The notes under the pieces: model-generated | Database searches by the model: none | Told to the model about the DNA's origin: nothing | What the model saw: only the letters and a program-made list of their open reading frames with translations | Source: Escherichia phage vB_EcoM-UFV09 | Length of the DNA stretch: 64,000 bases | Reading direction: 5' to 3' (one strand) | Sequence record: MZ291552.2 | Translations under genes and position numbers: made by a program | Shown here: piece by piece, positions 16,384-64,000 of the stretch | How positions within the stretch are numbered: position 1 is the first letter of the stretch | Layout of the letters: the number at the start of each line of letters is the position of its first letter

Positions 16384-16409
16384 GGGACCGAAAGGTCCCC
16401 ATATTTTTA
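16384..16409. terminator. Bidirectional hairpin (GAAA tetraloop) between gene 54 and the minus-strand early cluster
   Basis: ggggacc-gaaa-ggtcccc followed by atatttttattt. Confidence 0.5.
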
Positions 16410-16697
16410 TTTACGGAATGAAATAAAAGCAGCAACTGAAGCAACAGAGGTTTCTTCAATATAAACCTCAATTTTTACCGGAGCTTCTGACTCAAATTTA
16501 CCTGTTACTACACCTTGGAAAATACTTTCAGTCTGTTCTGGCTTTGAAAAATTTTCAGAAGGAAAAATTCCAAACTTTTTATCGGTTCCGAAAATTTTAA
16601 TAAATTCATCATAAACTGCTTCATTGAAAGCGTTATCAGCGGGAATAACGCCTTCAACGACGAGTTCTTGACCTAAAAAGCGCAAAGAAGATTTCAT
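16407..16697 (-). CDS. Hypothetical early protein (96 aa)
   Basis: ORF with GAGGA Shine-Dalgarno directly downstream of an early promoter. Confidence 0.7.
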   Translation of the reverse strand: MKSSLRFLGQELVVEGVIPADNAFNEAVYDEFIKIFGTDKKFGIFPSENFSKPEQTESIFQGVVTGKFESEAPVKIEVYIEETSVASVAAFISFRK

Positions 16698-16704
16698 TTT
16701 GTGT

Positions 16705-16758
16705 TCCTCATGTTATGTCAGTAAGATTATTATAACACAACACGAGGGACTTGTAAAC
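16705..16758 (-). promoter_or_regulatory. Early promoter plus leader cassette, copy 1
   Basis: Minus strand GTTTAC-N18-TATAAT then leader with GAGGA; identical over 54 bp to 32013..32066. Confidence 0.6.
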
Positions 16759-18815
16759 TACATTTTGAACTTTTTAGACATTCCGTTGATGTTAACCAAA
16801 GAAGCTAAGATTTGAGAAACTTCGTTTTCCTCTTCTTTTGATTCTTCTACAAGGAATTGATTAAATCCAGCCATTGGACGAACTTCACCAGTTTCCATCA
16901 GATGGTCGCCATCATATACTGATTCTTCTAATTGTTCAGAAGGAGGAACGATTGTACCTTCGATTAGATACTTGTTATAAGCAGTTTCTTTCATCATGTA
17001 CGTACTTACTTTATTAATCTTCAGTAAAATTCCACGCGGCAAAATAACTTCAGCTTCGGATGGAAATCCTGATAAATGACCTGGAACGATAACTTTAACT
17101 CGTTCAGCTCCTTTAATTACCATACCTACATTAGTTTCAGCGTCTTCATTCGCATATGTAGAATGACTACCCATATGCATTAAATCTTCAGCATCAACTG
17201 AACCTTCTCCTTCACCAGAAAATACTGCTCCGGAATCATCTAAGGCCATATAATTTTTACCATATTCACCGAAGATATTTGGCTTGAGTGAAGTAGATAC
17301 AAAGTTCTTGAAATAGAACATTTTATTTTCTATATTATGACGTAAAGTTTTAAAGGTAACTTCTTGCCCACGATAAAGAGTAGTTCCTGGAGGAAGAACT
17401 GAACCTTTAGAAAATGCAGAATCCAGCGTCTCAATATGTTTAATAGCTCGTTCCATATATTCTTCACGGGTAGAATCAGGTTTACCTAGAAGGAACGAGT
17501 TCATTTCAACATATGAATCTGCGCAATAATCTTCAATTACATCAGACTCAGCCTGAGTTAATCCTTTTGGAGTTACTTCAGTGCTTGCATATTCATATGC
17601 CTGAGCAGCAGATTCATCAATTAATTTATAAATTCCATTCATTACAAATTGAATAATAGCTGTCTTTTCATCTGGTGTAGCTTTAGAACCTTTAACTAAA
17701 TCATTGACAATTTTCTTAATAACATCAAAGCTATTAGAAATATTAATGTCAGCAAGATCGCTTAAAATTTTATCAGTTTTATAATCAAAGAATTCTTTAT
17801 TCTTTAAATATTCTTGAGAACCTTGATATGTTATATCGCTCTGCAGCTTGATAGATGGATCGCGTAAACGTGCATGGGCCAATGCAATATGATTTCGGAA
17901 GCTTTCGAGTTCATAATCACTAGATTTAAAACGAGAAGCACTTCTCATACCACCGATAGCTCCTTTGCTAAAGTTTGAACCAACCTGAATAACGCCAGAG
18001 TTCATTGGTCCTTCTGCTTTATATACCGGAACTTTAGATTCAAACTCTTGATATTTCTTAGCAGCGAAGCTATCACCCTGAAGTGAAGCATCAACAGTAG
18101 AATATTGAGCTTGTGCTGCTAATCGACGACTAATTTTAGTTTTCTGAATAACAGCTTGATCCGTGCGCTTATCATTTTCTAAAGCAATAGAAGCAGCAAC
18201 AGCAACAGCTTTAGGAACAGCATTACCTGTTTTAACGTCTACATAAACATCACCAACCTTTGATTCAACTTTTGTGAATAACTCGGTTGAAATAGGAGGT
18301 ACACCTGGAATGTCTTCTAAATTGGCATTTTTACGGTAAACCATAATATATGCGTACTTTTTATCATAATCCCAGATTTCCTTTAAAAGAACATATCGAC
18401 CTGCTCCTTTAGTACGTACTAAACGGTCAGCAATAACTTGCATTTGCCGAGCAGCGCCATTTGTTTTACTTTTTAGTACGCGGAATAAGCATGCATCAAT
18501 TTTATACTGTTTCATTGTTTGAAGAGCAGTATCAAAAACAGCATTAATGACGCCAATTGGATTTCCACCCAAGTTTTTAAGCTTAACTAATGATAGTTTC
18601 TCATTAACGCCTATCATTACGATATGCATCATTTTGTCGCCTGGCTTAACGTTTTTATTCGTATCACCGCCAGAGGTGTATGTACAAAATCTAAATCCAG
18701 GAAGCACGCTTTCTTCACCTGCTTGAATAGCAAAAATTTGAGGTATTTTATGCTTAGGATTTAAGTTAACAACCGGCGCCGAAGCGCCGTCAAATAATTC
18801 TGTAATAAGTTCCAT
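16758..18815 (-). CDS. Alt-like ADP-ribosyltransferase paralogue (685 aa)
   Basis: Paralogous to the adjacent 697-aa ORF (shared MELITELFD N-terminus); YRGQ, FVSTS and EAEVILPRG motifs resemble an ART R-S-E triad. Confidence 0.8.
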   Translation of the reverse strand: MELITELFDGASAPVVNLNPKHKIPQIFAIQAGEESVLPGFRFCTYTSGGDTNKNVKPGDKMMHIVMIGVNEKLSLVKLKNLGGNPIGVINAVFDTALQTMKQYKIDACLFRVLKSKTNGAARQMQVIADRLVRTKGAGRYVLLKEIWDYDKKYAYIMVYRKNANLEDIPGVPPISTELFTKVESKVGDVYVDVKTGNAVPKAVAVAASIALENDKRTDQAVIQKTKISRRLAAQAQYSTVDASLQGDSFAAKKYQEFESKVPVYKAEGPMNSGVIQVGSNFSKGAIGGMRSASRFKSSDYELESFRNHIALAHARLRDPSIKLQSDITYQGSQEYLKNKEFFDYKTDKILSDLADINISNSFDVIKKIVNDLVKGSKATPDEKTAIIQFVMNGIYKLIDESAAQAYEYASTEVTPKGLTQAESDVIEDYCADSYVEMNSFLLGKPDSTREEYMERAIKHIETLDSAFSKGSVLPPGTTLYRGQEVTFKTLRHNIENKMFYFKNFVSTSLKPNIFGEYGKNYMALDDSGAVFSGEGEGSVDAEDLMHMGSHSTYANEDAETNVGMVIKGAERVKVIVPGHLSGFPSEAEVILPRGILLKINKVSTYMMKETAYNKYLIEGTIVPPSEQLEESVYDGDHLMETGEVRPMAGFNQFLVEESKEEENEVSQILASLVNINGMSKKFKM

Positions 18816-18818
18816 GAT

Positions 18819-20912
18819 TTATCCTTGAACGAACTTGTAAGGCATGTTTGTAATATCTATGCAAGACGCAATAATTCCAAGAGATGATTCTACTTTCTGT
18901 TTAATATTTGATGAAACAAATGATGCAAAGTCAACTCTGTCTTCTATTTCAATATCACCTGTCATTGCAACCAATTCACCAGTTTCCATTAAATGGTCTC
19001 CATCATAGATTACCGATTCGGTGAGCTCTTCCGTGGTCATAACTTCAGCTTGAATGAGTTTTGTATTATTAGATGTTGTTCCGTCATTATTAGAAGCATC
19101 GATTATTTTATTAACTTTGACCATCAATCCACGCGGTAGAATAACTTCAGCTTCTGTTGCTATTCCGAGACTTCCTGGATATACAACATTAACTTTATGA
19201 GCTCCATCAATTGCCCATCCTATTTGAACTTTAACATATTCAGGATTTTCTTTATACGCTCTTATTTCGTTTGGATTAATAGTTATTCCTTCTTCATTTT
19301 TATCAACTGTTAATTCATTGCGAGCTTCTGGTTCTAAAAGACCAATACCAGCATGTGTGATTCCAAAACGTCCAAAAATGATAGGAGTTAAAGAAGTAGA
19401 TACAAAATTTCTGAAGTAGAACACTTTATTTTTAACTAACGCTTCATATATAGGAGCAGTCATACTTTGAGCACGATAAACTGTAATGCCTTCTGGTATA
19501 CGGTCACCATTTTCAAAAGCTGAATCTAAGTTATTTATAGCAGATTCAATTTCTTTTTCACTCATTACATCGTATCGTTCTGGATTGTAACGACCTAAAA
19601 GAAGATTATTGATGTCAGTATATCCTGAACCGCAATATTCTCTAATGCCACGCTTTTGTGATGGAGTATATTTAGAACCATCGCGGGCAATAGTAATATC
19701 AATCATTGGACCAGCACCAATTCCAGAAAAACTGTAAATCATTCGTTTGAGGAATTTAGTTTTTGCTGCGTTCCAGGAATTTTTAGTTATTTCTTCCCAG
19801 ACTTCATCTGGTTGTCCTTTACGATTTTTATTATGATTAGCAAGCCATTTATCTTTATAATCTTCAAAGAATTGATTTACAGCTGCTGCGTATTTCTCTA
19901 AACATTTTATTGAAGTAGTTGGTTCATTTTTAATTGCATTAAAAATTACTTCTTTAATTTTTTCTGAAACTTCACCGACTTGACTCATTGGAAAGAATTT
20001 ATAATCATAGTGAAGTTCATCTGCCGTTCCTTCAGCAATAATTTTTGCTGCCTTTGTTTTAGAAGCTAATGAATTAATTCCAATTTTCATTTCTTCTGCT
20101 TCGGGAATTAAAGGTGCAGTAGCTGGTTTATTAAAATTAGCTGCTGTAGATTCATACTTCTGGAATAATTCACTTTCAAATCTAGAAGATTCCAATGACT
20201 GACTTTGTGCAATTGCTCTACGGGAAATTTTAACTTTAACGATTACAGCTTGGTCAGAACGTTTATCATTTTCTTGCGCAATAGATGCTGCAATTGCTTC
20301 ATTTTTAGTTACTTGAGCTCCAGTATCTTTATTGATATAAACATCACCGACCTTCGATTCAACTTTAGTAAAGAGTTCAGTGCTAATTTCTGGAACTCCT
20401 GGAATGTCTTCTAATGATACATTTTTGCGATGTATAAGAATATATGCATACTTTTTATCGTAATCCCAGAGTTCCTTAAGAAGGACGTATCTGCCACCTG
20501 AACGACTACGGATAAGTCTATCAGCAATAACTTGAATTTGTCGAGCTTGGCCAGCAGTTTTAGACTTAAGAATACGAAGCATGCAGGCATCAATTTTATA
20601 TTGACGCATCGTTTGCATTGCAACAGTAAAAACTGAATTGATATAATTAATTGGGCTTGGACCAAGACCTTTTAATTTAGCAATTGAGCCTTTAGCAGTT
20701 AATGTAAAAGGAACAATATGCATCATTTTATCGCCCATCTTTAAATCGCGATTAGTATCACCTCCAGATGTATAGGTACATAAACGAAAGCCTGGTTGTT
20801 CAATTGCATCATCAACATGAACTGAAAAAATTTGTGGTATTTTCTTCTTTGGATTTAAGTTTGTAATCGGAAGAGTAGTATCTTCGTCAAATAATTCTGT
20901 AATAAGTTCCAT
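18819..20912 (-). CDS. alt: Alt ADP-ribosyltransferase (virion-packaged, modifies host RNA polymerase)
   Basis: 697-aa ORF with YRAQ, FVSTS, EAEVILPRG motifs; late promoter upstream; T4 alt position between 54 and 30. Confidence 0.8.
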   Translation of the reverse strand: MELITELFDEDTTLPITNLNPKKKIPQIFSVHVDDAIEQPGFRLCTYTSGGDTNRDLKMGDKMMHIVPFTLTAKGSIAKLKGLGPSPINYINSVFTVAMQTMRQYKIDACMLRILKSKTAGQARQIQVIADRLIRSRSGGRYVLLKELWDYDKKYAYILIHRKNVSLEDIPGVPEISTELFTKVESKVGDVYINKDTGAQVTKNEAIAASIAQENDKRSDQAVIVKVKISRRAIAQSQSLESSRFESELFQKYESTAANFNKPATAPLIPEAEEMKIGINSLASKTKAAKIIAEGTADELHYDYKFFPMSQVGEVSEKIKEVIFNAIKNEPTTSIKCLEKYAAAVNQFFEDYKDKWLANHNKNRKGQPDEVWEEITKNSWNAAKTKFLKRMIYSFSGIGAGPMIDITIARDGSKYTPSQKRGIREYCGSGYTDINNLLLGRYNPERYDVMSEKEIESAINNLDSAFENGDRIPEGITVYRAQSMTAPIYEALVKNKVFYFRNFVSTSLTPIIFGRFGITHAGIGLLEPEARNELTVDKNEEGITINPNEIRAYKENPEYVKVQIGWAIDGAHKVNVVYPGSLGIATEAEVILPRGLMVKVNKIIDASNNDGTTSNNTKLIQAEVMTTEELTESVIYDGDHLMETGELVAMTGDIEIEDRVDFASFVSSNIKQKVESSLGIIASCIDITNMPYKFVQG

Positions 20913-20935
20913 GTTATCCTCTCTAGTGTTTATTC

Positions 20936-20943
20936 TATTTATA
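20936..20943 (-). promoter_or_regulatory. Late promoter for alt
   Basis: Minus strand TATAAATA about 21 nt upstream of the alt ATG, followed by GAGAGGA Shine-Dalgarno. Confidence 0.55.
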
Positions 20944-20968
20944 AAATTAAAGGCCCGAAGGCCTTTAA

Positions 20969-21154
20969 TTAATAGAGAGCTAAAAGAGTACGATATACTT
21001 CAAACTTTGGACCTTTTTCATATGGATCAAATCTTTCCGTGAATTCATCATATGCTAGTTTATCTGGGAATTCAAGAATAACCTGCGATACCGCAGTGGA
21101 AACATCTCCACCTTCTTTTTGAGCCACGACAATTGTTTCTAAGTAAGCTTTCAT
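20969..21154 (-). CDS. Hypothetical protein (61 aa) between gene 30 and alt
   Basis: ATG overlaps the gene 30 stop (ATGA coupling). Confidence 0.55.
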   Translation of the reverse strand: MKAYLETIVVAQKEGGDVSTAVSQVILEFPDKLAYDEFTERFDPYEKGPKFEVYRTLLALY

Positions 21155-24857: not shown

Positions 24858-24898
24858 AATATTTTCCTCAGTAAGGGGCCGAAGCCCCTCATTTATTT

Positions 24899-25264
24899 TT
24901 AAATATCAAATTCGTTAAGAACTACATCAAAGATTGCTTCAAGATGCTCAGGTTTAGCTCTGTTACTCAGAATATGACGAATCCAAGTTTTAACCAAAAG
25001 CTTACGATTATCACCATTCCAGCAAGGATGAGTCCCTAAATCGCGTTGACGAAAATCATCATCCAAAGCGATTTTGAAGTTGGAACCTTCCATTGTGATT
25101 GAAACCGTGATGCCATTTTCAAATCGCATATAAACATAATTAGGAGTCATATACTGTTCAATTTCGCATACTGATCCATTTTGATGTTTCCAAAGGCAAA
25201 TAGTATCAATAGAACCTGCAATACCATTAGAAACATATTTACGTTCAAAGTTGATGTAGTTCAT
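24899..25264 (-). CDS. 30.7: Hypothetical protein 30.7
   Basis: 121-aa ORF preceded by an early-promoter-like sequence at about 25295..25330. Confidence 0.7.
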   Translation of the reverse strand: MNYINFERKYVSNGIAGSIDTICLWKHQNGSVCEIEQYMTPNYVYMRFENGITVSITMEGSNFKIALDDDFRQRDLGTHPCWNGDNRKLLVKTWIRHILSNRAKPEHLEAIFDVVLNEFDI

Positions 25265-25332
25265 TTTTGTTCTCCGAGATGTTTAATTGCGGTACAGGTA
25301 TATAATATCATATCCTGTACCAAAGTAAACAA

Positions 25333-31161: not shown

Positions 31162-31511
31162 TTAGAAAGGTCCTGGATGTCTTCTGCGAACTTGTTGAAG
31201 GAGTTGTTGATTTGTTTTTCAACCAATCCTGGCTTACGAGCCACCACATCCGCCTTCTTTGCGTCTTTGCGCAGCTTTTCATTTTCACGCTCAATAGCAG
31301 CAATTGCCTCACGATTTTTATTATTCATCGCGTCAATATAATTATACTGAATTCGCAAATTATTTAATGCTAAGGCGTTTTCATTGGCCGTTTTTGTAAT
31401 TTCAGTAACTGATGTTTCTAATCTTTCTACCTTATTTTTTAAAATAATAGATGTTCCGCCTAATGCTATTACAATTAATAGCAAACCTGCTGTAGTATTA
31501 CTTAATTGCAT
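31158..31511 (-). CDS. pseT.3: Inner-membrane spanin (i-spanin)
   Basis: N-terminal transmembrane helix followed by coiled-coil-like sequence; adjacent to the o-spanin. Confidence 0.75.
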   Translation of the reverse strand: MQLSNTTAGLLLIVIALGGTSIILKNKVERLETSVTEITKTANENALALNNLRIQYNYIDAMNNKNREAIAAIERENEKLRKDAKKADVVARKPGLVEKQINNSFNKFAEDIQDLSK

Positions 31512-32005
31512 AAAGTTTTAATAACCTCTACAATATCATCTTGAGAAAGACCGTTAATTAAAATATGATGTTCAGCCGGAGATTTAGAAATTTTAAAGCA
31601 TGCCTCAACATCTTCTGCCATATCCGATGCACTACGATTTGGATTACTAATTCCAAGACGATGCTTTCCAGTCAAAGGATTAACGATGATATAGCATTTA
31701 CAGCTATTGATATGAACATTGGGCTGAGTCTGATTAATGAACACTTCGCACTCATACTTAGCGAGTTGATTTTCTAAAAAGACTTTCATCTCTTCAACCG
31801 CATCAGGAAGCATATCGCGGGCTTGCTCAAGACGACGATTTCGATATTCTTTAATGGTAGTTTTCCGCTTGACTTGCTTAGCTAAATCTTTCTTAAGATC
31901 GGTGATATATCCAACTCGACGATTTCCTTTGAATACAGAAATCCCATCTGTAGTATCACCGTATGCTTCAACGACCATCTCAGTAGTAATAAGCTGCAAA
32001 TCCAT
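31502..32005 (-). CDS. alc: Alc, terminator of host transcription on dC-containing DNA
   Basis: 167-aa ORF at the T4 alc position. Confidence 0.8.
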   Translation of the reverse strand: MDLQLITTEMVVEAYGDTTDGISVFKGNRRVGYITDLKKDLAKQVKRKTTIKEYRNRRLEQARDMLPDAVEEMKVFLENQLAKYECEVFINQTQPNVHINSCKCYIIVNPLTGKHRLGISNPNRSASDMAEDVEACFKISKSPAEHHILINGLSQDDIVEVIKTLCN

Positions 32006-32012
32006 TATAAAG

Positions 32013-32066
32013 TCCTCATGTTATGTCAGTAAGATTATTATAACACAACACGAGGGACTTGTAAAC
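32013..32066 (-). promoter_or_regulatory. Early promoter plus leader cassette, copy 2 (drives alc)
   Basis: Identical over 54 bp to 16705..16758. Confidence 0.6.
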
Positions 32067-32069
32067 AGC

Positions 32070-33657
<1,588 letters not shown>

Positions 33658-44852: not shown

Positions 44853-47800
44853 ATGGCCGAGATTAAAAGAAAGTTCAGAGCAGAAGACGGTCTGGACGCA
44901 GGTGGTGATAAAATAATCAACGTAGCTTTAGCTGATCGTACCGTAGGAACTGACGGTGTTAACGTTGATTACTTAATTCAAGAAAACACAGTTCAACAAT
45001 ATGATCCAACTCGTGGATATTTAAAAGATTTTGTAATCATTTATGATAACCGCTTTTGGGCTGCTATAAATGATATTCCAAAACCAGCAGGAGCTTTTAA
45101 TAGCGTACGATGGAGAGCGTTACGTACTGATGCAAACTGGACAACTGTTTCGTCAGGACCTTATCAATTAAAATCAGGCGAATCGATTTCAGTTAACACT
45201 GCAGCGGGTAATGACATTACATTTACTTTGCCATCTTCTCCAATTGATGGTGATACTATCGTTCTCCAAGATATTGGAGGAAAACCTGGAGTTAACCAGG
45301 TTTTAATTACAGCTCCGGTACAAAGCATTGTAAACTTTAGAGGTCAACAAGTACGCTCAGTACTAATGACTCATCCAAAATCACAGATAGTTTTAATTTT
45401 TAGTAATCGTCTGTGGCAAATGTATGTTGCTGATTATAGCAGAGAAGCGGCAGTTGTAACGCCAGCGAGTCTTTATCAAGCGCAATCAAACGATTTTATC
45501 GTGCGTAGATTTACTTCTGCTTCAGCAATTAATATTAAACTTCCTAGATTTGCTAATCATGGGGATATTATTAATTTTGTTGATTTAGATAAATTAAATC
45601 CGTTATATCATACTATCGTTACTACATACGATGAAACGACTTCAGTACAAGAAGTTGGAACTCATTCCATTGAAGGCCGTACATCTATTGATGGTTTCTT
45701 AATGTTTGATGATAATGAGAAATTGTGGAGATTATTTGACGGTGATAGTAAAGCGCGTTTACGCATTATAACAACTAATTCAAACATTCGTCCAAATGAA
45801 GAAGTCATGGTATTTGGCGCGAATAATGGAACAACTCAAACGATTGAACTTCAGCTTCCAACTGATATTTCTATCGGTGATACTGTTAAGATTTCCATGA
45901 ATTACATGAGAAAAGGACAAACAGTTAAAATCAAAGCTGCCGGTGAAGATAAAATTGCTTCTTCAGTTCAATTGTTGCAATTTCCAAAACGTTCAGAATA
46001 CCCACCTGAAACTAAATGGGTGACTGTTCAAGAATTAGTTTTTAACGGCGAAACTAATTATGTTCCAGTTTTACAGCTTGCTTATATCGAAGATTCCGAT
46101 GGAAAATATTGGGTTGTACAGCAAAACGTTCCAACAGTTGAAAGAGTAGACTCTTTAAATAATTCTACTAGAGCAAGATTAGGTGTAATTGCATTAGCTA
46201 CACAGGCTCAAGCTAATGCAGATTTAGAAAATTCTCCACAAAAAGAATTGGCAATTACTCCAGAAACGTTAGCTAATCGTACTGCTACAGAAACTCGTAG
46301 AGGTATTGCAAGAATAGCAACAACTGCGCAAGTAAACCAGGATACCACATTCTCTTTTGCAGATGACCTTATCATCACTCCTAAAAAGTTGAATGAAAGA
46401 ACTGCTACAGAAACTCGCAGAGGTGTCGCAGAAATTGCTACGCAGCAGGAAACTAATACAGGTACTGATGATACTACAATCATTACTCCTAAAAAGCTTC
46501 AAGCTCGCCAAGGTTCTGAATCATTATCTGGTATTGTAACTTTTGTATCTACTGCAGGAGCTACTCCAGCTTCTAGCCGCGAATTAAATGGTACGAATGT
46601 TTATAATAAAAACACTAATAACTTAGTTGTTTCACCTAAAGCCTTGGATCAGTATAAAGCTACTCCAACACAGCAAGGTGCGGTAATTTTAGCAGTTGAA
46701 AGTGAAGTAATTGCTGGACAAAGTCAAGAAGGATGGGCAAATGCGGTTGTAACGCCAGAAACGTTACATAAAAAGACATCAACTGATGGAAGAATTGGTT
46801 TAATTGAAATTGCTACTCAAAGTGAAGTTAATACAGGAACTGATTATACTCGTGCAGTCACTCCTAAAACTTTAAATGACCGTAGAGCAACTGAAAGTTT
46901 AAGTGGTATAGCTGAAATTGCTACACAAGTTGAATTCGACGCAGGCGTCGACGATACTCGTATCTCTACACCATTAAAAATTAAAACTAGATTTAATAGT
47001 ACTGATCGTACTTCAATTGCTACACAAGTTGAATTCGACGCAGGCGTCGACGATACTCGTATCTCTACACCATTAAAAATTAAAACTAGATTTAATAGTA
47101 CTGATCGTACTTCTGTTGTTGCTCTATCTGGATTAGTTGAATCAGGAACTCTCTGGGACCATTATACCCTTAATATTCTTGAAGCAAATGAGACACAACG
47201 TGGTACACTTCGTGTGGCTACACAAGTTGAAGCTGCTGCCGGAAAATTAGATAATGTTTTAATAACTCCTAAAAAGCTTTTAGGTACTAAATCTACCGAA
47301 TCGCAAGAAGGTGTTATTAAAGTTGCAACTCAGTCTGAAACTGTGGCTGGAACGTCAGTAAACACTGCTGTATCTCCAAAAAATTTAAAATGGATTGTAC
47401 AGAGTGAACCTACCTGGGCAGCTACTACTGCGATAAGAGGTTTTGTTAAAACTTCATCTGGTTCAATTACATTTGTCGGTAATGATACAGTCGGTTCTAC
47501 CCAAGATTTAGAACTGTATGAGAAAAATAGCTATGCAGTATCACCATATGAATTAAACCGTGTATTAGCAAATTATTTGCCATTAAAAGCAAAAGCTGCA
47601 GATAGTAATTTATTGGATGGTCTAGATTCATCTCAGTTCATTCGTAGGGACATTGCGCAGACGGTTAATGGTTCACTAACCTTAACCCAACAAACGAATC
47701 TGAGTGCCCCTCTTGTATCATCTAGTACTGCTACGTTTGGTGGATCAGTTTCAGCAAATAGTACATTAACTATTTCTAATACTGGAACAGCAACTCGATT

Positions 47801-53600: not shown

Positions 53601-53999
53601 CATGGCCATTTAGTTCAGGCGAATGACAGTTATTCCACATATGTACGCGATGTTTATGTCCGCTCTGATATTCGTGTCAAAAAGGACCTAGTTAAATTTG
53701 AAAATGCTTCTGAGAAGCTTTCAAAAATTAACGGTTACACTTATATGCAGAAGCGAGGTCTAGATGAAGAAGGTAATCAAAAATGGGAACCTAACGCAGG
53801 TTTAATTGCTCAAGAAGTTCAAGCTATTTTACCTGAATTAGTTGAAGGCGATCAGGATGGTGAAGCACTACTTCGTTTGAACTACAACGGTGTAATCGGT
53901 TTAAATACAGCTGCAATCAATGAGCATACTGCAGAAATTGCAGAACTTAAGTCAGAGATTGAAGAGCTTAAAAAATTAGTCAAATCATTGTTAAAATAA
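50673..53999 (+). CDS. 37: Long tail fibre distal subunit gp37 with C-terminal intramolecular-chaperone-like domain (T2-type)
   Basis: 1108-aa ORF; C-terminal about 110 aa (SDIRVKKDL...coiled-coil tail) resembles the autoproteolytic chaperone domains of phage fibres and tailspikes. Confidence 0.9.
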
Positions 54000-54003
54000 A
54001 ATG

Positions 54004-54019
54004 AGGGGCTTCGGCCCCT
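54004..54019 (+). other. Stable RNA hairpin (UUCG tetraloop) between genes 37 and 38
   Basis: aggggc-ttcg-gcccct immediately followed by GGAGG Shine-Dalgarno and the gene 38 ATG. Confidence 0.5.
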
Positions 54020-54030
54020 TGGAGGTTTAT

Positions 54031-62752: not shown

Positions 62753-62838
62753 TAAACTTTCCTTTTACGTCGGAATCACTGATATTCATACAATAAATCA
62801 TAGTTTCCCTTAAAACAAAAGGGCCGAAGCCCCTTATT

Positions 62839-63033
62839 TTATTTGAATTGTGCAATTCTTTTTTCTAAACACTCTGCGTAAGATTTCATTGAGATGAACT
62901 GTGAAAGTAGAAGTTCTTGCTCAACTGCACTAACTGTTAGAAACTTTGCGCTTTCTAAAAATTTGCTCAGTGCATTAATTTTGAGCATTAATTGATCGTA
63001 TTCTTCTTTTACTCGTGCTTGATAACCTAACAT
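62839..63033 (-). CDS. Hypothetical protein (64 aa)
   Basis: ORF flanked by GAA-tetraloop hairpins (gggccgaagccc at about 62821..62837 and 63049..63063). Confidence 0.55.
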   Translation of the reverse strand: MLGYQARVKEEYDQLMLKINALSKFLESAKFLTVSAVEQELLLSQFISMKSYAECLEKRIAQFK

Positions 63034-63061
63034 AATTTTCCTTAGTTAAGGGCCGAAGCCC

Positions 63062-64000
63062 TTATTTAAATTGTTCAGTAACGTCTTCAACTACTTCGTA
63101 TTGGCAGGTACGCATTTTAGCATCGTTGTAATCAATCGGAATTGATACTACATCACGTGGATGTACTTTAACTTTTACAACTCGGCTGGTTGAACTGCCA
63201 AAGTGACGAATATAAGATTTAGAACACACATGCAGACCACGAGAACAAGTTTGTGTATCATCGTCATTCACACGAGTACGTGGCATTTTAACTACTTTGC
63301 CAGGACTGTTATCAAAGGTGTTTGAGTGGCAGTCAAAGTAATTGCTGCGAACTACTTTCCAAGCATAGAAGTAGCCATCTTCTGTAATTTCAATATCGTT
63401 TGCTACCAAGAAATCAAAGAGTCGAGATACCGCTTTTTGGCTTGGGTTTTCCAGCAGATTTTCCAAGAACGGAAAATAAAATTCAAAGTTTTCGCCTTTT
63501 TCCATCGAGTCAAGAATACGATCAACCAAACCAGACCGCAATTCGATATTTTGATAGAACAAGCTTCCACCTTCAATTCGAACATCGCCGGAAATATATT
63601 TTTCAACAGCGCGACGAACATTAATTTTTTGTGCCGCTTCTTCTAACTTATCTGCTACGAGCAGATTAAGAATTTCCTGGAAGTTTGAATGAGTATTAGG
63701 TGTTGCATTATAAGTTACACCATCAACAGTAATCGAAATGAATTTTTTAGATGCATTCCAAATAATGTCAGATTTAGCAACTGGAGCAATAACTGCATCG
63801 CTATTAACTTTAACTGTAATATCACCACTAATAGTAACTTTAGGGCGTTTAGCTTCTTCAGCATTTTTCAAAACACGACGGATTGTGTCAACCGATACAT
63901 CCTTCCAATAAGCTAATTCCTGCTGAGTGTAATTACCACTTGAATACAGTTTAACAATTTCAGCTTGTTCGTTTTTGGTCAGGCATTTAATATTGTACAT
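63062..64000 (-). CDS. rIIB: rIIB protein
   Basis: 312-aa ORF recognised as T4 rIIB; start codon is the last three bases of the window. Confidence 0.93.
   Translation of the reverse strand: MYNIKCLTKNEQAEIVKLYSSGNYTQQELAYWKDVSVDTIRRVLKNAEEAKRPKVTISGDITVKVNSDAVIAPVAKSDIIWNASKKFISITVDGVTYNATPNTHSNFQEILNLLVADKLEEAAQKINVRRAVEKYISGDVRIEGGSLFYQNIELRSGLVDRILDSMEKGENFEFYFPFLENLLENPSQKAVSRLFDFLVANDIEITEDGYFYAWKVVRSNYFDCHSNTFDNSPGKVVKMPRTRVNDDDTQTCSRGLHVCSKSYIRHFGSSTSRVVKVKVHPRDVVSIPIDYNDAKMRTCQYEVVEDVTEQFK

Follow-up and report, generated by a model that had tools for sequence, protein, structure and literature searches.

A 54-bp segment that occurs twice, letter for letter, in the DNA of Escherichia phage vB_EcoM-UFV09 raises the question of what keeps two short regulatory regions identical when they lie some 15 kb apart and serve different genes. 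The stretch that we analysed (64,000 nucleotides of sequence record MZ291552.2, hereafter the window) is near-identical to Escherichia phage vB_EcoM-UFV05, a Tequatrovirus and relative of T4. A first-pass annotation had described the segment as an early promoter plus leader, used once for a 96-aa protein and once for alc, and had suggested recent gene conversion or a portable promoter cassette as the reason for the identity. The explanation that we favour, with a probability of roughly 0.6, is that the segment is a cassette of the PeSL type (a strong σ70 promoter, a Shine–Dalgarno (SD) sequence and a stem-loop; Arbiol et al., 2010, PMC2839356), that gene conversion keeps it alike at the two loci and that its folded shape would in addition act as a gate on the SD sequence.

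The two copies match over exactly 54 nt, with the adjoining base different on either side. Beyond them the flanks match at chance level and are thus unrelated. A repeat search of the window independently listed the same pair (family D10) with a spacing of 15,308, and by our own arithmetic (36% GC, a per-base match of about 0.27) the chance expectation for an exact pair of 54-mers in 64 kb is about 1e-22. In the transcribed orientation, which is that of the minus strand, the segment reads GTTTACAAGTCCCTCGTGTTGTGTTATAATAATCTTACTGACATAACATGAGGA. The copies and the genes around them are as follows.

16705..16758, minus strand: cassette copy 1 (54 bp), in the gap between the alt paralogue and alt.-3, exactly identical to copy 2.
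32013..32066, minus strand: cassette copy 2 (54 bp), in the gap between rnlA and alc (genes named from the annotation of relatives), exactly identical to copy 1.
16407..16697, minus strand: alt.-3 homologue, 96 aa, Pfam DUF5498, served by copy 1.
31502..32005, minus strand: alc, 167 aa, Pfam ALC, inhibitor of host transcription, served by copy 2 (annotation of relatives, Pfam).
16758..18815, minus strand: alt paralogue, 685 aa, intact, the stop codon of which adjoins copy 1; putative source of read-through RNA (open reading frame (ORF), annotation of relatives).
32070..32072, minus strand: stop codon TAA of rnlA (gene 63), 3 nt ahead of copy 2 and not separated from it by a terminator.

The description of an early promoter and leader used twice is thus confirmed by the exact match and by the repeat search. 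Gene positions and the Pfam matches (DUF5498 and ALC) likewise agree with the two genes proposed to be driven by the cassette, the 96-aa protein being Alt.-3. The first base of copy 1 is the last base of the TAG stop codon of the alt paralogue, which overlaps the G of GTTTAC, and the first base of copy 2 lies 3 nt past the rnlA stop codon. Both copies end 7 nt before an ATG, such that GAGGA is followed by 7 nt and then by the start codon of alt.-3 or alc. Since the copies start at or near the upstream stop and end 7 nt before the ATG, the cassette represents essentially the whole intergenic space.

Identity on this scale exceeds the ordinary likeness of early promoters, as had been suspected. 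Among the 10 early-type promoters in the window, identity over 54 nt is 100% for the twin, 78% for the pair that comes next and 48% on average. A degenerate 50-mer scan of IMG/VR returned six loci on five contigs, which was too few, and hence GenBank phage records were used instead. When the 54-mer was compared by blastn with 50,697 phage records, 997 places were found in 499 records, all of them T4-like (Tequatrovirus). At about two copies per genome, the 54-mer is not a sequence found at most early promoters, as ordinary promoter conservation would have it. In each of the 499 Tequatrovirus records both copies are present, with conservation of at least 90%. The comparison with T4 agreed in part: T4 carries both copies (L001 6041–6094 and 19284–19337), but the two are not identical there, differing mutually at 1 of 54 positions. 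Exact identity is not fixed elsewhere either, in that many relatives differ at 2–5 positions and the exact allele of the window is present at both loci in only 9 of the 499 records.

The 54-mer is very probably an early promoter cassette. In a consensus scan both copies scored 11/12 against the σ70 consensus (TTTACA, 17 bp, TATAAT), with TG ahead of the −10 element. Near-consensus hexamers, a 17-bp spacer and an extended −10, which characterize T4-type early promoters (Hinton, 2010, PMC2988021), are all found in both copies, and a promoter is annotated at the alc copy in the record of one relative. In a literature search that did not extend to the T4 review of Miller (2003), we found no map of T4 transcription start sites (TSS) and no comment on the alc/alt.-3 promoter pair. 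The elements assigned to the cassette are listed below.

16752..16757, minus strand: −35 element TTTACA of copy 1, within GTTTAC (consensus scan).
16729..16737, minus strand: TGn and −10 element (TGT TATAAT) of copy 1 (11/12, TG present).
32060..32065, minus strand: −35 element TTTACA of copy 2 (consensus scan).
32037..32045, minus strand: TGn and −10 element (TGT TATAAT) of copy 2 (consensus scan).
16722, minus strand: predicted transcription start of copy 1, an A located 7 nt past the −10 element (from promoter geometry).
32030, minus strand: predicted transcription start of copy 2 (from promoter geometry).
16705..16709, minus strand: SD sequence GAGGA of copy 1, at the base of the 3′ arm of the hairpin described below.
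32013..32017, minus strand: SD sequence GAGGA of copy 2.

The first-pass annotation had further predicted that transcription and translation would be initiated identically at the two genes. This holds for the core promoter, the leader and the SD sequence, which are the same, but not for their surroundings. The DNA upstream of the −35 hexamer, where an UP element would lie, falls in coding sequence that differs between the copies (A-tracts CTAAAAAGTTCAAAATG and GAAAAATTATAAAAAATTTATCC are present by inspection), and both the 7-nt spacers between SD and AUG and the first codons are different. Inspection of the SD sequence GAGGA revealed no GGAG, so that the RegB route reviewed by Uzan and Miller (2010, PMC3014915) does not apply. 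An AUG in the shared leader (within CAUGAGGA) opens a mini-ORF of 4–5 codons (AUG AGG ...; 16695–16712 and 32003–32020, minus strand), and at each locus its stop codon shares bases with the main AUG (AUGA and UAAUG). We rejected the mini-ORF as a functional element: it is without an SD sequence, its AUG is destroyed in the alt.-3 variant of GBLB0003 (ATAAGGA) and it probably arose by chance.

A finding beyond the first-pass annotation, which missed it, is that the 54-mer is predicted to form a long hairpin that sequesters the SD sequence. When the transcribed strand was folded, the promoter spacer and −10 element (CCCUCGUGUUGUGUUAUAA, 5′ arm) paired with the leader and SD sequence (UUACUGACAUAACAUGAGG, 3′ arm) in a stem of about 18 bp, at about −20 to −25 kcal/mol and with z close to −5.

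16706..16747, minus strand: hairpin of copy 1, −21.4 kcal/mol, z −5.1.
32010..32060, minus strand: hairpin of copy 2, with its core at 32014–32055 and AAG/CUU pairs that lengthen the stem past the 54-mer, −22.8 kcal/mol, z −5.6.

In folds of 61 nt, none of 200 shuffled sequences (0/200) folded as well as either copy. The hairpin is retained in all 14 haplotypes of the genome sample introduced below, at −20.4 kcal/mol or better in 13 of them and with 98.8% of cells paired; in the T4-type hairpin the top refolds, so that G29 pairs with C38. No family of Rfam 15 matched at the gathering score, the two matches at the alc locus being at chance level (E 0.27 and 0.65). The hairpin is the probable reason why the cassette is a discrete unit, and it puts the sequence into the PeSL class.

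We then considered the RNAs in which the SD sequence would be present. In RNA that reads through from upstream, folded with 0–300 nt of upstream context, the predicted cost of opening the SD–AUG region is 12–13 kcal/mol and the SD sequence is about 0% unpaired. RNA from the cassette's own start (predicted +1 at A37 of the 54-mer, the start of the 3′ arm) folds at only −2 to −3 kcal/mol (z about 0), with a predicted 2.3–2.4 kcal/mol required for opening. Shuffling of the 17-nt spacer alone abolished burial of the SD sequence, since the observed value was reached in 0–1 of 200 shuffles. The consensus scan found no terminator-like site between the upstream genes and either copy of the cassette, and therefore transcripts of the alt paralogue and of rnlA must run into it. 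For copy 1 a candidate origin of such transcripts can be named.

20936..20943, minus strand: late-promoter motif TATAAATA, assigned from the motif only, just past a terminator-like hairpin (GGCCTTCGGGCC and a T-rich tail) and 24 nt upstream of the ATG of alt.

Matches to TATAAATA number 12 in the window against 9 expected, and none lies within the cassette. Late transcripts that read through into copy 1 are likely to come from the match upstream of alt. The Alt protein belongs to the virion and is injected with the DNA (PMC2988021), and taken together with the late motif upstream of its gene this suggests that RNA entering copy 1 is probably late.

On this basis we propose that read-through RNA, whether derived from alt (late or other) or from rnlA transcripts, would hold both arms and bury the SD sequence. 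RNA from the cassette's own promoter would start atop the 3′ arm, lack the 5′ arm and leave the SD sequence free. Translation of Alc and Alt.-3 would in that case depend entirely on RNA from their own early promoter and hence be confined to the first minutes of infection. Judged by folding energies and geometry, we consider the odds of such a translational gate to be even.

Complementarity between spacer and SD sequence also occurs at two unrelated early promoters of the window, P61452 and P25722, where 16 and 7 kcal/mol, respectively, are needed to open the SD sequence and where its burial is significant against shuffled spacers (0–1/200). P61452 (61392–61452, minus strand; GACTGTTCTTCCGTGG ... 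CTACGGAGGAACAG, −22.7 kcal/mol) precedes a 37-aa hydrophobic ORF (MKKIIKAIW...), and P25722 (25663–25722, minus strand) is located upstream of a gp30.8 homologue. It is conceivable, although we rate it as rather doubtful, that a subset of the early promoters of T-even phages (in the window, three of the nine independent families: alc/alt.-3, P61452 and P25722) are ‘promoter-in-hairpin’ modules in which the spacer serves as an anti-SD sequence and restricts translation of the gene that follows to RNA begun at this promoter, the twin being additionally kept in step by ectopic conversion, perhaps aided by palindrome breakage.

The hairpin might instead have a role other than the gating of translation. 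One alternative, to which we attach a small probability, is that the stem-loop is a terminator or attenuator that insulates alc and alt.-3 at the level of RNA synthesis, as has been proposed for PeSL elements. One stem-loop of RB49 cut downstream lacZ about as much as a strong terminator (PMC2839356), and a somewhat U-rich sequence, CUUUAUAAU, comes after the alc copy. However, the alt.-3 copy is followed by AACACAAAAUG, which contains no U tract, and the consensus scan detected no rho-independent terminator-like site (G+C-rich stem plus U tract) at either copy. A–U and G–U pairs abound in the stem, which is not of the GGGG/CCCC type. Termination here would, moreover, also cut off the genes past alc (pseT.3 onward), between which there is little or no intergenic space.

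We regard it as slightly less probable again that the hairpin is an element for RNA processing or stability, either an RNase III-type site or a structure that protects the 3′ ends of the alt and rnlA mRNAs. The comparison behind this possibility is provided by the RNase III sites in the early mRNA of T7. An imperfect duplex of about 18–22 bp between cistrons resembles the RNase III sites of other phages, and hairpins at P25330, P28742 and P40506 enclose the −10 element without the SD sequence, that of P25330 being kept in Mosigvirus and Gaprivervirus; yet a role of this kind does not require the complementarity between spacer and SD sequence that is seen in the cassette. P25330 itself (25264–25330, minus strand) lies upstream of a gp30.7 homologue, and its hairpin (GGTACAGG...CCTGTACC, −19 kcal/mol), which encloses the −10 element and not the SD sequence, is kept in three genera (T4, L001 ~12919; p000v of Mosigvirus, L023 ~10812; VR20 of Gaprivervirus, L022 ~6814). 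Together with the similar hairpins enclosing the −10 element at the window promoters 28742 and 40506, it has the look of a PeSL-type stem.

Translational coupling, in which the stem would be melted by ribosomes that complete alt or rnlA, so that read-through RNA is translated in proportion to the upstream gene, seems to us very unlikely. The stop codons do stand directly upstream, the TAG sharing its last base with the start of copy 1 and the TAA lying 3 nt before copy 2. On the other hand, the part of the 5′ arm that pairs with the SD sequence starts 11–16 nt past the stop, which by our own estimate from ribosome helicase geometry is a distance that a terminating ribosome could barely reach, if at all, and the distance from stop to stem differs between the loci while the cassette is the same.

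To return to conversion, the second component of the favoured explanation, we compared 16 genomes that carry both copies, comprising the window, T4, one IMG/VR contig and 13 GenBank phages. Five of the 14 haplotypes in this sample occur at both loci, as do 5 of the 13 variant states (G16A, T27C, G29A, G32A and T33A). Identical pairs are present in 6 of the 16 genomes and involve four haplotypes, namely those of the window and G28, of RB32 and the IMG/VR contig, of RB51 and of BF15. Permutation gave p = 0.0006 for the number of identical pairs, and p = 0.004 for the mean distance between paralogues (1.94 within a genome against 2.73 across genomes); because the genomes were hand-picked and are phylogenetically related, both values are optimistic. 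The qualitative pattern of allele sharing is independent of them.

The allele of the window illustrates this pattern. Two linked changes set it apart from the commonest, T4-like allele and convert the −10 element from TATAGT to the consensus TATAAT: TATAGTAGTC is common to both T4 copies, and the window has TATAATAATC at this position in both of its copies. KMB39 has this A29/A32 allele at alc alone, and PEC04 and EP01 have it at alt.-3 alone; G28 and the window carry it in every copy. The alc copy of KIT03 is a mosaic of two alleles (C27, G29, A32), indicating that the end-points of exchange fall inside the 54 bp. When the whole collection was searched with locus-specific 60-mers, the window allele was present, among the records listed, at alc in 15, at alt.-3 in 30 and at both loci in 9, compared with about 0.9 expected if the loci were independent. 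Fisher's test on this co-occurrence gave 1e-8 on records and 0.001–0.016 after rough de-duplication.

Because the same multi-site alleles stand at two non-allelic loci, transfer between the loci is required, and purifying selection alone cannot give the pattern. Repeated or ongoing ectopic gene conversion between the two copies thus appears very probable from the sequences, and the earlier suggestion of gene conversion is supported by the alleles that the two loci have in common across relatives. The two direct copies, 13–15 kb apart, would swap sequence by non-crossover homologous recombination; allelic recombination between phages would then reshuffle the alleles, and the phage of the window would simply happen to hold the same allele twice. 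The copies are direct repeats that flank gene 30 (DNA ligase), 31, rIII, cd, pseT and others. With a crossover, this block of 13–15 kb would be lost or doubled, and hence only non-crossover products would be expected to persist. The minimal homology quoted for T4 recombination is close to the length of the 54-bp tract (Singer et al., 1982, as cited in PMC2839356). It is highly improbable that the pair is an old duplication kept identical by purifying selection with no exchange, for although the presence and conservation of both copies in every Tequatrovirus record, and constraints on promoter, SD sequence and hairpin that could slow divergence, would fit it, the five derived states and five whole haplotypes found at both loci, the identical pairs in four haplotypes and the A29/A32 allele that stands at one locus, the other or both according to the phage do not, and parallel independent mutation at five sites is very unlikely.

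Several further points weigh against the joint explanation of a conversion-kept cassette with a gate. The promoter and TSS are predictions from consensus, and the base of the stem might be opened in part by a ribosome that ends at the upstream stop, 11–16 nt ahead of it. In the own-start RNA of alt.-3 there is weak predicted pairing of the SD sequence with downstream codons (unpaired about 0.1; 2.4 kcal/mol to open). Two or three stem variants break pairs (G18A and G40U in the structure tested), and several others change G–U to A–U. Covariation in the stem was not significant over the 14 haplotypes: we found one compensatory pair, C15U with G50A in GBLB0003, which was equalled by 74 of 500 shuffles, the sequences being too similar for covariation to test the structure. 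Support for the predicted structure comes from thermodynamics and from its recurrence at other promoters, not from covariation. Finally, SD sequestration is lacking in six of the nine independent families of early promoters that the window contains, which indicates that the design is not general.

By the published definition the cassette fits the PeSL class and so, as far as its sequence tells, is of a known kind; neither the promoter as such nor the general notion that promoter cassettes recombine is new. In phi1/RB49 the PeSL stem-loop lies mostly between the two boxes (−35 and −10) or overlaps the −10 box, and the evidence of Arbiol et al. comprises promoter activity of one cassette, terminator-like activity of one stem-loop and PeSL–PeSL recombination (PMC2839356). 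In the passages of Comeau et al. (2014, PMC4122927) that deal with the T4/PST pair, PeSLs are extended to these phages with the promoter consensus TTTACW, N17, TAYWAT, and the legend to the PST figure places the stems just upstream of the promoter. The cassette shares with PeSLs the layout of stop codon, σ70-like early promoter, stem-loop, SD sequence and start codon, and it fits the T4/PST consensus. It also has a stable stem-loop within or overlapping the promoter (spacer, −10 and leader). PeSL copies recombine or adjoin indels and act as short homology patches for phage recombination, and the cassette behaves likewise, in that alleles are common to both of its loci and that both junctions carry the rearrangements described below.

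The differences concern structure, location and outcome. The stem of the cassette is about 18 bp, rich in A–U and G–U pairs rather than of the GGGG/CCCC kind, has no U tract and includes the SD sequence in its 3′ arm. Its copies lie 15 kb apart across essential genes, whereas PeSLs flank one or two ORFans in a hyperplastic region. The outcome recorded here is gene conversion and concerted evolution, in contrast to the indels and mini-circles seen with PeSLs, and the stem was read by the PeSL authors as a terminator or attenuator, not as a translational gate.

A second comparison is with T4 e, soc, 49 and I-TevI, where SD and/or AUG are paired in long upstream transcripts and a promoter located within the helix gives a short translatable RNA without the 5′ arm (Uzan and Miller, 2010, PMC3014915). 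The predicted geometry of the cassette is the same, in that the SD sequence would be paired in read-through RNA and the own-start RNA would lack the 5′ arm. The timing is inverted: in those genes the internal promoter is late and the silent RNA early or middle, while here the promoter is early σ70 and the silent RNA would be later read-through. Their switch was shown by experiment, whereas that of the cassette is predicted. The twin also resembles dispersed repeats under concerted evolution, in which paralogues within a genome are closer than expected and polymorphisms are common across lineages, and its length of 54 bp approximates the minimal T4 homology mentioned above. It differs in being a very short regulatory element and not a gene, and in that homogenization is incomplete, with 10 of the 16 sampled genomes carrying non-identical copies.

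As to age, GTTTAC promoters are found at the same two junctions (alt stop and rnlA stop) in Mosigvirus p000v and Gaprivervirus VR20. An older origin of the twin was rejected on their account, since the promoters of p000v and VR20 show a gapped identity of 0.80, no better than other pairs, and fold at only −7 to −9 kcal/mol. These pairs are neither twins nor long hairpins, and so the twin hairpin cassette arose or was homogenized in the Tequatrovirus lineage. In p000v (MK047717.1, L023 3381–3446) the annotated alc start, an ATG overlapping the rnlA stop, lies within an evident early promoter (GTTTACAAACACCAAGGATGGTGTTACTAT). Translation probably starts 63 nt further downstream, at an ATG preceded by GAGGAG (MNMQLITND...), in which case the annotated ORF is likely to be over-extended by 21 codons.

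Both junctions have also been rearranged. At copy 1 the window holds two full-length alt (ADP-ribosyltransferase) paralogues in tandem (16758–18815 and 18819–20912, minus strand), which are about 72–80% identical in patches with a spacing of 2.09–2.10 kb, and an exact 29-nt repeat covers both alt 5′ ends (18788–18816 and 20885–20913). T4 and ACG-C40 retain the second alt copy only as fragments (alt.-1/alt.-2), which places an indel next to cassette copy 1. At the rnlA–alc junction of G28 (L013 15497–16147) a perfect 300-bp tandem repeat with a spacing of 351 has created a third cassette copy and a truncated alc. We rejected this third copy as a sign of cassette mobility; the duplication reaches from the 3′ end of rnlA across the cassette into the 5′ end of alc, and is not bounded by the cassette. 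VR20 (Gaprivervirus, L022 14106–14927) carries an ORF for a 77-aa alc-like fragment between rnlA and alc.

Some features of the window lie apart from the twin. G+C-rich hairpins with a four-base loop occur on both strands, at 20937–20974, 24861–24898, 53991–54020, 62806–62843 and 63035–63072. They form a family with a T-rich tail after each hairpin (GGGGCC-GAAG-CCCC on the plus strand, GGCC-TTCG-GGCC on the minus strand) and look like intrinsic terminators. In the member at 20945–20965 (minus strand), upstream of alt, the late-promoter motif TATAAATA follows directly. One plus-strand gene contains a perfect 99-bp tandem duplication (46916–47113) and, in addition, diverged repeats of about 68 nt (65–74% identity) at 46254–46924.

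For the biology of T4-like phages, the twin is a clean and countable instance of a virulent phage in which a regulatory element of some 54 bp undergoes ectopic gene conversion. Where PeSLs had been linked to the shuffling of indels in hyperplastic regions, the twin carries the idea over to the concerted evolution of two promoters that flank a block of essential genes, and the PeSL stem may have a task besides termination, namely the hiding of the ribosome binding site in RNA that is not made from the cassette's own promoter. If the gate exists, it would explain how Alc, which shuts off host transcription, and Alt.-3 could be strictly early despite later transcripts running through their genes, and it would matter both for the use of T4 RNA-seq as a proxy for protein output and for the reuse of these promoters in engineered phages. 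Promoter-in-hairpin modules, if real, would confine a protein to the immediate-early window, a mirror image of the late switches of e, soc, 49 and I-TevI, and conversion of the twin would put alc and alt.-3, otherwise unlinked, on one and the same temporal programme.

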